Below, piece after piece: positions 2,288 to 42,966 of a stretch of DNA of 46,158 nt. Source of the stretch: Perkinsus olseni. Its lineage: Eukaryota. The stretch is from the NCBI GenBank assembly GCA_013115125.1, contig JABANN010000262.1, forward strand, positions 1 to 46,158. The letters are read 5' to 3'. The stretch's first letter is position 1. Every line of letters starts with the position of its first letter. A program made the translations under genes and the position numbers. Under the pieces are notes generated by a model that saw nothing but the letters and a program-made list of their open reading frames with translations, was not told the DNA's origin and ran no database searches.

Positions 2288-3313
2288 ATGCAAACCTTCA
2301 TTATTTGGATAGCCTCTGTCATCTGTTTGATGATTCACATACCGCAAGTGTACGGAGCAACGGCCTTCAACTCCGACAACGATGAGGACACTATGGAAGT
2401 CGACGCTCACGGAAGTCGCAAGAAAGTCCGCGCCCGAAGGGTGTTAGGGAACAGGATTAATCCACCAAGCAACAGACCCATGCCCCTCCAGAGTAGAAGG
2501 GAAATCCAGCCGACGACTACTCATCATGCTGCCAGTGGCAAACGCACGTGGGAAATGCAAAGCCCGGACCCTCCGCAAGCCAAAAAACTCATGGCTTCCA
2601 GAGAGGTGAGGGCAGGTCGCAGAGGGAGAATGAGATCTTCCTCGGGCGGAGGAGTATTAAGGATCAGAACTTGCTTGTTGCTGTTAGGATGGTACGTGCC
2701 GTGCAGTTCTAACGAACGAGGTCGGGGTCAACGAAGAGGGAAACGCAATTCGCGCCCAGACTTGCAGTCTGCAGTTCACCGAGCATGGAGCGGTAGAGTA
2801 CTCTACCGAGACCGAACAGGAAAGTGGCGAACCTTCAAGGGTCGTTGGTGTCACTTGCGGCGAAAAGTCGTACATGGTGTAGGTTGGGTGCTGCTGCTGA
2901 ATCGTTCAGTGCTTCGTGCTCCGCTAATGCGTTCTCTGTTCAAGAGCGATCGCGATGTGCTCGGGCTCTTAATAACTGTCCCTAGACATATCCGTTCGCC
3001 TCCTCTTTTCAGCGCGGATGGTCGTATTGATGCAATCCTAATGGGCGAAGACATGTACGATGTTGGGCGTGATGACCCGGCGGGAGATTTCAATAACAGA
3101 GCCTTTGGGATGAGATGCTTGGATATCTTTCACGAGGTACAGAGAATACTTCTGCCCGGATCGCCGGTGAGCGATGTCTTGGAAAAGGAGGAGTGTACCA
3201 AGATAATAACGCAAATTTGCAACATGTATCAGAGCGCTGTGTATGCTCCGATGCCACCCACTGAAGCAGCCTATGGCCGCTCGCGCTCCCGAGCGAACAC
3301 TCGTGGCCGCTGA
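2288..3313 (+). CDS. 'MQTFII' family secreted protein, copy 1 (exons 2288-2605, 2688-2878, 3013-3313; about 269 aa)
   Basis: Signal-peptide leader shared with 6 other loci. GT-AG introns of phase 0 and 2 restore a frame homologous to the paralogs (DGTC..TC..TCGEKSYM / ADGRID..DP..FGMRC..C..IC). Confidence 0.8.
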   Translation: MQTFIIWIASVICLMIHIPQVYGATAFNSDNDEDTMEVDAHGSRKKVRARRVLGNRINPPSNRPMPLQSRREIQPTTTHHAASGKRTWEMQSPDPPQAKKLMASREVRAGRRGRMRSSSGGGVLRIRTCLLLLGWYVPCSSNERGRGQRRGKRNSRPDLQSAVHRAWSGRVLYRDRTGKWRTFKGRWCHLRRKVVHGVGWVLLLNRSVLRAPLMRSLFKSDRDVLGLLITVPRHIRSPPLFSADGRIDAILMGEDMYDVGRDDPAGDFNNRAFGMRCLDIFHEVQRILLPGSPVSDVLEKEECTKIITQICNMYQSAVYAPMPPTEAAYGRSRSRANTRGR

Positions 3314-4499
3314 ATGCTGTTAGGGTCTTGTTGCTGTTGCTGTTGCTGTTGCTATTATTGTTGTTAGTGATTGTGTACGTTGACGTTGAGAAGTATCTTG
3401 GGTAACAAGTTAGCGAATCGGCGACCCGCGTTTTGACTCGGACCATTTCTTCAGCTTGATGCGCACTACAGTATTTCTCGTGCCAGTTTGACAAGTGAAC
3501 CGGCGAGAATGGCAATGTGACAAGCGAGTTTGACACATTTCCAATTTGTTGACACCAAGGATGTCACTTTGTGTAGACTAACAAGTTAACCTTTATTGAA
3601 GCATCATTTAAATCTGCCTCAAGGCCTCGTACTTTGGCTAGGTTTATAATGAAAATGTTGAACCATGGCAACGATCGTTTTTTCTGCCATTGAAGACGCA
3701 GAGGTTGTTGAGACTCTCAACGATGGTGAAGCAGCTGACAAAAGGTGGGGAGTCCCCACTGGGGACCGACCCTCGCTCCGCAATGACTCTAAACTTTAGG
3801 AGAGACTGCAGAACGACCCACCTGCTATTCCAACGTCGTCCCCGAATGGCTTCCTCACCAGGCCTCCTCCTCCTCTATGCATTTGCGGGTCAGGCGTAGA
3901 TCAGAAAGCGGACCAACATCGCGATCGATACCGTCGCATCAAGTGTACGCATGTAGACAGTTATACTCATCTTTGTGGCCAGGCCCTCTGAAAAGCTTCG
4001 CTCCGCTGTGTTCGAAACAACGTTTTCACTATGAAATACATGGCTTAGACTCAGGAGCGTCATTTCCTGTGTTTTGCGTCCTATGGCACACGGTACGCCT
4101 AAATACAATAGCCCACACACAACAGCCTCAGGTTGTGTCTAAAGTGCGGGAACGGCAAGCGAACTAGAAACTGAACGCTCGACCCTTTCTCCGACCCCGC
4201 AATGAGCAATTACGAGAACGAGTGAGCCCCCAACGTATCTTTCAAAATGGAAAAAAACTCAACACCCATCTGTGAGAGCCCATGACCCGTACGCCACGTC
4301 ACATGACGCGGGACAGCGTCTGAAGCGACAAGACGGACGAAGCTCGCCATTATATTCCGCCCAACGGTTTTACCCCTCTGACTCCCCCTTCTACCCTGCT
4401 TGGGTTCTACAGCGCCCCCACAGAACCGAACTGCTGCCCATCACCCACTACTCAATACAACCCCGATAGCAAATAAGAAATAGAATCGAACGTTTCAAC

Positions 4500-40979: not shown

Positions 40980-41933
40980 CTTGGCGGCTGTGAGTAGATG
41001 ATAATGCTGTTGAACATGATGTTATGAATTCTGAGAGGCGTATGTTGTGTTACGAGTGGGGAATGGTCATTCAACGAAATTGGAATGGGAGAGAATAGCT
41101 ACAACCGAGCACGAGGGGAAATAGCACGGTACAAGTCGATCGATGGTGACCGCTTTATTCTAATGACTACCGGGACAGGACTGTGCGACCACTGACTGTA
41201 TGTGCCTCAGCCATGTCGTGTGCCTACTGTAGTAGCTGTGGTGTTGGAGATCATGACGTCGAACCCTCCATGATATTGAGCCTGCATACGCCGCACGGTG
41301 TGCCAAAAATGGAAAGTGCCCTAAGGAGAAAACTCATTTTAGGTCTGTATGAGTACAGTCGATCCACGAAATATCGGAGCCATATTCGCATTCGTTGACT
41401 CGCAGTTTCGCCGGATAATTTTACATGTGTTTTCGCCATTGCCGTTCGTTTTGTATGGAGAAAAGGGCTTCGATGAACATCGCAGCTCGACGTTGCAAAC
41501 CGCCTACTTTTTTCAACACTTTAGTTGGTGTCGCGAATGAGTGGGGTCCCGATGGTGTTCTCGGTTCTCCCAGACTCGATTTGACCTGGCGTGAACTGCT
41601 AATTCTTAAAAATGCTGCCTGTGGGAATCGAACCGGAAACCTTGGCGGAATTCATCTTGACATTCGTTTGCGTTGAAAAGCTCTCGAAAAGAATCCAAAA
41701 AGCTAATACTCATCGTGAATCGTGAATCGTGATCGATTCGTGATGGAACTCTTACTTTAAGATGCACTAGTGCACGATACTAATAATACGAAGATGGGTT
41801 GAGTTAGAAATGTAGTTTGACGAGTATCGTCAGGGACGCTCGTTTCACAACTTTTTACTCAAAATGCTCCTCGGTTACAGACATCAACATCAACATTCAA
41901 AGCCCATCAACGGCCGCTCGGGAATGCTGGTGG

Positions 41934-42966
41934 TCACACACGGCTTTGAGTGGCTTGCAGCGGAGCGTCCGCAGCGCTCTGATATGCGTTGCAAATTTGC
42001 GTTTTCATCTTGGTACACTCCTCCCTTTCCAAGACATCCCTCACCGGCGATCCCGGCAGATGTGTTCTCTGTACCTCGTGAAAGATATGCAAGCATCCCA
42101 TCCCAAAGGCTCTGTTATTGAAATCCTTCGCCGGGTCATCACGCCCAACATCGTACATGTCTTCGCCCATTAGAATCGCGTCAATACGACCATCCTCGCT
42201 GAAAGGACATGGGGCATGGATACGTCTAGGGAGAGCTTTTAGGAGAGTAGCATCCCAAGTTAGAGCTCAGAATGGGATGCTGCTCTCCTAGGTTCAGGGG
42301 AAAGGCGAACACAGAGGACCCCATGAACGGTGGTCATGCCCGTAACACTGGACGGTTCAGCAGCACTGCCCAACCTACACTATGTATGACTTTTCACCGC
42401 AAACGACGCAAACGATCCTCGAGGTTTCACCACTCTCCTTTTCAGTCTGGGTAGTGTAGCTGACCGCTGCATACTCGGTGAACAGCAAGTGACAAGTCTC
42501 CACGCGAATTTCGATTCCGTCTTCGTCGACCTCGGTGTCGCTGGTCAAAACTGCGCCGCACCTGCCATCCTGACAGGAAAGACAAGTTCGGATGCTCAAT
42601 ATTTCTCTCGGGGCAAGATGTCATTCACCCTCCTGGACCTGCCCTCACCCCTTTGAATTGCATGAGTTTTTTGGCTTGCGGAGGGTCCGGGCTTTGCATT
42701 TCCCACTTGCGTTTGCCACTGGCAGCATGATGAGTAGTCGTCGGCTGGATTTCCCTTCTACTCTGGAGGGGCATGGGTCTGTTGCTTGGTGGATTAATCC
42801 TGTTCCCTAACACCCTTCGGGCGCGGACTTTCTTGCGACTTCCGTGAGCGTCGACTTCCATAGTGTCCTCATCGTTGTCGGAGTTGAAGGCCGTTGCTCC
42901 GTACACTTGCGGTATGTGAATCATCAAACAGATGACGGAGGGTATCCAAATAATGAAGGTTTGCAT
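41934..42966 (-). CDS. 'MQTFII' family secreted protein, copy 7 (close paralog of copy 1; three exons, last 42198-41934)
   Basis: Exon 1 is almost identical to copy 1. Exon 2 DGRC..TC..VCGEKSYI; exon 3 EDGRIDAILMGEDMYDVGRDDP..C..C..IC. Confidence 0.82.

Follow-up and report, generated by a model that had tools for sequence, protein, structure and literature searches.

The conotoxin superfamilies of cone snails and the preprodermaseptins of frogs are prepro families built on a secretory cassette: in their precursors a well conserved signal region is followed by basic pairs and a fast-diverging mature peptide of 10–40 residues, which keeps its cysteine framework. Among parasites, the SVSP proteins of Theileria parva form a large and variable secreted family, of which some members are reported to have a working nuclear localization signal (NLS; PMC2657828). 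Here we describe a gene family in a 46,158-nucleotide stretch of Perkinsus olseni DNA (contig JABANN010000262.1, positions 1 to 46,158, hereafter the window), the members of which start with the same short leader. The family is real, multi-copy and expressed. With moderate confidence we read it as a Perkinsus-restricted, prepro-type secreted family, in which a converted 5′ cassette is joined to a disulfide-bonded orphan domain that would act outside the parasite cell. Perkinsus species kill clams and oysters, and the literature searched yielded no description of an effector or of a secreted multigene family from this genus. The present family supplies concrete candidates for host-interface proteins and a domain for which neither relatives nor a fold could be recognised; it also illustrates plainly how a 5′ cassette can stay unchanged while divergence in the remainder of the gene reaches saturation.

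Gene copies, transcripts and the conserved 5′ cassette

An earlier note on this DNA, made from the sequence alone, had proposed that seven loci share a leader, that six of them continue with GAT(A/P)FNSDND, and that two further exons with a cysteine pattern follow, separated by introns of phases 0 and 2. All three proposals are borne out. A degenerate pattern for the first seven codons matches the window exactly seven times, at the start codons 2288, 19839, 25279, 36867, 38010 and 39424 on the plus strand and 42966 on the minus strand; 0.04 matches are expected by chance and none of 100 shuffles reached seven. The continuation is present in six of the seven loci, the exception being 25279. Models built from open-frame segments on both strands give six intact loci, each with three exons, a coding length divisible by three and no internal stop. 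The two cysteine-patterned exons are found in all six, the twelve introns are all GT..AG, with lengths of 45–749 nt, and the phases are 0 and 2 throughout; the first intron of copy D has a weak donor (GTACCG). The family members in the window are:

2288–2605, 2688–2878 and 3013–3313, plus strand: exons of copy A, 269 amino acids
19839–20156, 20246–20406 and 20608–20896, plus strand: exons of copy B, 255 amino acids
25279–26177, plus strand: copy C, a pseudogenised paralog of B, with an exon-3-like part at 25917–26174
27192–27490, plus strand: eighth family remnant, exon-3-like alone (profile E 2.9e-14 and 9.5e-4 for two frame pieces)
36867–37265, 37311–37504 and 37553–37886, plus strand: exons of copy D, 308 amino acids
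38010–38267, 38318–38490 and 38793–39102, plus strand: exons of copy E, 246 amino acids
39424–39732, 39784–39971 and 40721–40979, plus strand: exons of copy F, 251 amino acids
42966–42649, 42569–42379 and 42198–41934, minus strand: exons of copy G, inverted duplicate of A, 257 amino acids

Copies A and G are recognised as inverted duplicates by paired segments with 95% identity over 380 nt and 87% over 300 nt. Copies B and C belong to a direct segmental duplication (19600–21872 and 25073–26177, 5.4-kb spacing, 78–98% identity in pieces), of which B alone is intact. Copy C has an in-frame TGA at 25357–25359, after codon 26, and has lost most of exon 2, the exon-2 profile finding no match at this locus; an intact counterpart is present in another assembly (database protein P0010). 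When all 1518 open-frame pieces in the window were scanned with the profiles, one extra family piece came up, the remnant at 27192–27490. It belongs to the P0009/P0019 subfamily, its frame is broken by additional bases near 27340–27360, and the scan found no leader or exon 2 upstream of it. The pseudogene, the remnant and the nucleotide-level conservation that begins about 35 nt before the ATG, described below, are new with respect to the earlier note.

RNA contigs from one public run were placed on 23300–43200, with copies A and B lying outside this region and 8 of 85 pieces listed. The run contains a fraction of 0.66 of the words sampled from 36700–43100, and its contigs skip ten stretches, nine of which have GT..AG ends, or CT..AC in the case of minus-strand genes. 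Because these canonical introns are skipped on both strands, the run is read as containing spliced RNA. Three of the 12 predicted junctions are matched exactly by spliced contigs:

38490>38793: intron 2 of copy E, GT..AG, 302 nt skipped
39731>39783: intron 1 of copy F, GT..AG, 51 nt skipped; a position one base to the right fits equally well
39971>40721: intron 2 of copy F, GT..AG, 749 nt skipped

Spliced transcription is thus established for two copies, E and F, and the splicing assumed in the earlier note stands for these; copies D and G are taken up below. Intron 1 of copy E (38268–38317) and a 51-nt stretch in copy G have no joint among the pieces listed, which is neutral on splicing there.

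This 51-nt stretch is in frame, has GT..AG ends and lies within exon 1 of copy A (2441–2491), with a matching stretch in copy G (about 42763–42813). In copy A it may be an additional intron: the database models P0033, P0038, P0036 and P0003 treat the stretch as an intron, while P0001 and P0002 retain it. The stretch is retained in the sole listed contig across copy G, which shows no splicing anywhere. Copy A is also open in one frame from ATG to stop (2288–3310, 341 codons), because the summed length of its two introns is divisible by three; without splicing, the message would still specify the leader and the true exon 3, with a scrambled middle between them.

When the seven loci are aligned, a block of about 150 nt, from about −35 to +115 with respect to the ATG, is near-invariant at the DNA level. 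A repeat finder delimits it as follows:

2249–2399, plus strand: conserved 5′ block, reference copy of a 151-nt repeat, about −39 to +112 (putative 5′ untranslated region, signal peptide and acidic patch)
19800–19950, plus strand: further copy
25240–25390, plus strand: further copy
36828–36978, plus strand: further copy
37971–38121, plus strand: further copy
39385–39535, plus strand: further copy
about 42855–43003, minus strand: further copy, from inverted pairs

The mean identity over all 21 locus pairs, anchored on the ATG and taken in 15-nt bins, rises and falls at the limits of this block:

−120 to −46: 0.25–0.31
−45 to −31: 0.47
−30 to +74: 0.88–1.00
+75 to +119: drop from 0.80 to 0.59
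from +120: 0.26–0.37

The conservation of the leader is therefore a nucleotide-level feature, which sets in about 35 nt ahead of the start codon. Synonymous sites tell the same story, as seen from the proportions of synonymous (pS) and non-synonymous (pN) differences, averaged over the 15 pairs of the six intact copies:

codons 1–32: pS 0.089, pN 0.016
exons 2 and 3 (the domain): pS 0.698, pN 0.483

Since synonymous sites and 35 nt of upstream sequence are included, the conservation goes beyond what selection on the protein alone would give, which points to a 5′ cassette held near-identical by gene conversion or by selection on nucleotides. Between these two, gene conversion is favoured by a mosaic pattern: copies D and G have identical leaders (96 of 96 bases) with domains that are merely 24% identical, while the leaders of the inverted duplicates A and G differ. 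Upstream of the ATG, the cassette contains a run rich in pyrimidines, together with an AG located 17 nt ahead of the start codon. Perkinsus trans-splices its mRNAs, and this AG could be a candidate spliced-leader acceptor.

Encoded proteins and range of the family

Four parts can be told apart in each protein. The signal peptide is followed by a conserved patch of acidic residues, then by a basic, disordered linker, and last by a domain of about 150 residues with a confident fold prediction. By simple rules, the leader is predicted to be a cleavable signal peptide of 23 residues: the most hydrophobic 15-residue stretch begins at residue 4 in all six intact copies (mean Kyte-Doolittle value 2.0–2.6), and the predicted cut, after VYG and ahead of the alanine at residue 24, has valine at −3 and glycine at −1. 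No later membrane anchor or glycosylphosphatidylinositol (GPI)-like segment is found in the six copies, the highest 19-residue hydrophobicity after residue 30 being 0.65–1.11, and none of them ends in KDEL or HDEL.

The portion encoded after exon 1 measures 148–175 residues and is predicted to fold as one domain. Exon 2 has five invariant residues in the six intact copies (C4, G18, C26, Y38 and C57), exon 3 has six across seven copies (D21, P22, C35, Q43, D54 and C69), and the six cysteine columns of the domain are invariant or nearly so; these six cysteines would form three probable disulfides. In the AlphaFold2 model of P0001, the predicted local distance difference test score (pLDDT) is below 50 for residues 1–99 and about 88–96 per ten-residue block for residues 111–240. 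The model of P0019, which is almost the domain alone, has a mean pLDDT of 81.9 and a predicted template modelling score of 0.73. These two proteins come from two subfamilies, and in both models seven consecutive strands are followed by three helices, in the same order, with a domain pLDDT mostly above 90. Exons 2 and 3 could in principle have turned out to belong to a known, non-secreted family; in the searches made, no match to any Pfam family, solved structure or fold was found for them, the profile search of the sequences of the Protein Data Bank (PDB) was empty, and the best score in the ESM Atlas, 0.84, was under the threshold for a lead.

The basic clusters quoted in the earlier note are present in the linkers. 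The strict NLS pattern K[KR]x[KR] occurs in the linkers of three of the six window copies (A, B and G) and of eight of the 17 leader-bearing database proteins; copy B has it three times, a number reached by none of 500 shuffles of its linker. It is absent from copies D, E and F and from nine of the 17 database proteins, including all four with a short linker (P0007, P0009, P0015 and P0039). A loose bipartite basic pattern is matched, as a pattern, in two of the six window copies. Pairs of the type [KR]R are present in every linker, both in the window (6/6) and in the leader-bearing database proteins (17/17), and are as compatible with dibasic processing sites as with an NLS. One RR column is invariant in an alignment of 12 sequences, a kind of column that low-complexity alignment tends to favour.

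Among all named matches the family is confined to Perkinsus. A search with the open frame 2288–3310 gave 15 named matches, all of them hypothetical proteins of P. olseni, and a search of longer proteins with residues 1–40 gave 18 matches among 18 candidates, again all from P. olseni. A profile of 21 sequences found eight named matches, seven from P. olseni and one from P. chesapeaki (P0025). An exhaustive search of 1.84 billion representatives with the exon-3 profile returned 22 proteins at E <= 0.001, 14 of them at E <= 1e-10; P0027 and P0032, which match this profile weakly and repetitively, were excluded from the family count. The idea that the family is undescribed holds in so far as it has no Pfam family and no description was found in print; its proteins have already been deposited as hypothetical proteins of P. 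olseni and P. chesapeaki. No description was found in the literature searched, where supplementary secretome and transcriptome tables fall outside the search and could name these genes. The part of PMC8062965 considered here mentions other extracellular Perkinsus proteins and not this leader-bearing family.

Four deposited proteins (P0033, P0034, P0035 and P0017) are identical to copies A, E, F and D, respectively, over the parts they cover, and our models correct them. Three of them, P0033, P0034 and P0035, end after exon 2 and lack exon 3, to which RNA contigs continue splicing for two of them; P0033 also leaves out 2441–2491. The fourth, P0017, matches exons 2 and 3 of copy D in 175 of 175 residues and has a different, out-of-frame amino-terminus, without the leader. 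Full-length models from other assemblies share junctions with the window copies: P0011 with B, P0013 with E and P0001 with G.

The modular architecture that the earlier note had proposed, with one head on variable remainders as in effectors, does not agree with these comparisons. The same domain, of exon-2 type, recurs in every one of the 18 database proteins that have the leader, the window copies align to each other across exons 2 and 3, and the more distant members P0028 and P0031 bear diverged forms of the same leader. Paralogs thus appear to differ by divergence and not by swapped tails, and by these alignments the family is a single diverged lineage, not one head on unrelated tails; as the same domain follows the leader in 18 of 18 proteins, it is not modular in the Crinkler sense. 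The linker, described before as hypervariable, is so between paralogs, whose domains have 20–40% identity. Presumed orthologs in other assemblies are 7–20% different, with a linker that is 80–93% and a domain that is 86–93% identical, and by this comparison the linker is not especially variable between strains.

Taken together, we propose that the family spread by tandem and segmental duplication. The shared 5′ cassette, made up of a short 5′ untranslated region, the signal peptide and the acidic patch, would direct the protein into the endoplasmic reticulum (ER). After the cassette comes the predicted disordered, charged linker, always with [KR]R pairs, which may be removed at a dibasic site; this is the least certain step. 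The carboxy-terminal domain of about 150 residues, with seven antiparallel strands packed against three helices and held by three probable disulfides, would do the work of the protein outside the parasite cell, whether at the host interface, in the vacuole or in the medium. Paralog domains have diverged, while gene conversion or nucleotide selection would hold the cassette. We infer secretion, disulfide bonding, extracellular action and, with least certainty, linker removal.

Surroundings of the copies

Three recognisable housekeeping genes lie between the family copies:

7446–8099: Sar1-type GTPase (Arf family), E 7e-58
31846–34386, minus strand: Utp21/WDR36 homolog, introns confirmed by RNA contigs
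43717–44538: actin, E 4e-104

Pfam gave no match for eight further long open frames in the intervals between copies. Genes for tRNA-Ser(GCT) and tRNA-Arg(ACG) alternate in tandem arrays at 205–1366 and 44895–45736, repeating about every 316 nt. The arrays, one at each end of the contig, are inverted with respect to each other, show up to 90% complementarity over 393 nt, and comprise 14 tRNA genes in total, including two odd anticodon calls ('Asp gtc' at 222–303 and 'Ser act' at 45016–45097). An Rfam scan of the window found tRNAs only. Directly upstream of the exon-3 remnant, the segment 26600–27283 has a very high depth of RNA contigs, with a non-canonical joint at 26640>26715 (GT..GA, depth 857) and a variant with a three-base insertion at 26928; it has no match to Pfam, Rfam or the family profiles.

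Alternative readings and comparison with known systems

Several observations weigh against a prepro-type secreted family with a converted cassette. The amino-terminal region of the signal peptide (MQT) lacks a basic residue, and the call is based on simple rules, not on a trained predictor. Copy D has one of the six conserved cysteines replaced. The distance from the last [KR]R to the first cysteine varies from 6 to 43 residues in the window copies, with no fixed site as in a textbook propeptide. Few sites are available to separate gene conversion from purifying selection on nucleotides. On the transcript side, the RNA label of the run is a guess, and copies D (36934–38093) and G (42129–42894) have unspliced contigs only, among the pieces listed.

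The same evidence for entry into the ER and for a disulfide-bonded domain would serve equally for proteins that stay with the parasite, as wall components of trophozoites or hypnospores or as cargo of zoospore secretory organelles, without direct action on host molecules. The location of the genes among housekeeping genes, in no obvious specialised island, agrees with this. We nevertheless regard it as rather unlikely, given that the proteins lack a retention signal and any segment of transmembrane or GPI-like type. The very fast divergence of the paralogs (domain pN 0.48) and the 7–20% differences between presumed orthologs are commoner in host-exposed proteins, which is only suggestive. Further from the evidence is the proposal of the earlier note that these are host-nuclear effectors, where the leader exports the protein, the protein enters the host haemocyte and the basic clusters serve as NLS. 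A signal-peptide-like leader is combined with at least one basic run in each intact copy, the strict pattern in A, B and G includes the threefold occurrence in B that shuffling does not reproduce, and the linker is predicted to be disordered, as are many translocated effectors. A precedent for a multigene family of a parasite that combines a signal peptide with a functional NLS is reported for the SVSP proteins (PMC2657828). However, the strict pattern is missing from half of the window linkers and from more than half of the database proteins (3/6 and 9/17), and no known export motif is shared: among the six linkers the PEXEL pattern R.L.[EQD] occurs in one (D), RRL in one (E), RxLR (R.LR) in one (copy D only) and the Crinkler motif LxLFL (L.LFL) in none. 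Moreover, the best-conserved part beyond the leader is a folded domain with six cysteines, a type more typical of proteins acting outside cells and a hindrance to membrane translocation, and processing sites would account equally well for the basic pairs after the signal peptide. The host-nucleus idea is thus weakly disfavoured, and in our estimate improbable. A related version, in which signal peptide, acidic patch and first RR make up a new Perkinsozoa delivery module into the haemocyte and basic clusters bring some members to the nucleus, seems slightly less probable still; if true, the phylum Perkinsozoa would gain its first described effector system, unrelated to PEXEL, RxLR and Crinkler (CRN) proteins.

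Also considered was a two-part plastid leader of the kind used by organisms with red-lineage plastids, in which a transit peptide, with a phenylalanine close to the cut, comes after the signal peptide. Perkinsus retains a relict plastid, and a phenylalanine is located four residues past the predicted cut (ATAF or ATPF). This reading was rejected on composition and is given almost no weight: the stretch after the phenylalanine is strongly acidic, the opposite of a transit peptide. In addition, copy B would have a proline at −1 of the alternative cut, and a fast-diverging multigene family with six cysteines is unlike plastid proteins.

Compared with described effector systems, the prepro-type secreted family that we favour resembles the oomycete CRN and RxLR proteins in having a signal peptide, a conserved amino-terminal stretch, a variable remainder and a sharp conservation boundary. 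Unlike these, it has no LxLFLAK-like motif and RxLR in a single copy, its tails are homologous instead of unrelated modules, and it is cysteine-rich and folded, while translocated oomycete effectors are usually cysteine-poor. With PEXEL/TEXEL proteins and the host-nuclear dense-granule effectors of Toxoplasma it shares an alveolate parasite as its source, a signal peptide and a disordered basic region; it differs from them in the scarcity of R.L.[EQD] and RRL, in the lack of any sequence or fold relation in the searches made and in its disulfide-type folded domain. As the defining motifs are missing from most or all linkers, membership of the CRN, RxLR and PEXEL/TEXEL groups fails.

The likeness to the SVSP family of Theileria parva is that of a large, variable family of secreted parasite proteins (PMC2657828). 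Theileria lies free in the host cytoplasm, where secretion alone reaches the host cytosol, which is not known for Perkinsus; furthermore, SVSP genes are subtelomeric while the Perkinsus genes lie between housekeeping genes and tRNA arrays, and the absence of a Pfam match gives no sequence relation. Conotoxin and preprodermaseptin precursors have a mature peptide in place of the Perkinsus alpha/beta domain of 150 residues. The Perkinsus family further departs from them in a conserved block that includes about 35 nt upstream of the ATG, in basic pairs that are putative cleavage sites at varying distances from the domain, and in being from a protist parasite. It resembles them in a signal region, here with an acidic piece, that is far better conserved than the rest, even at synonymous sites, in the basic pairs that come next, in the fast-diverging mature part that keeps its cysteine framework, and in the distribution of these parts over separate exons. 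By analogy, SVSP would be the closest system among parasites, and the conotoxin and preprodermaseptin precursors the closest analogues in logic.

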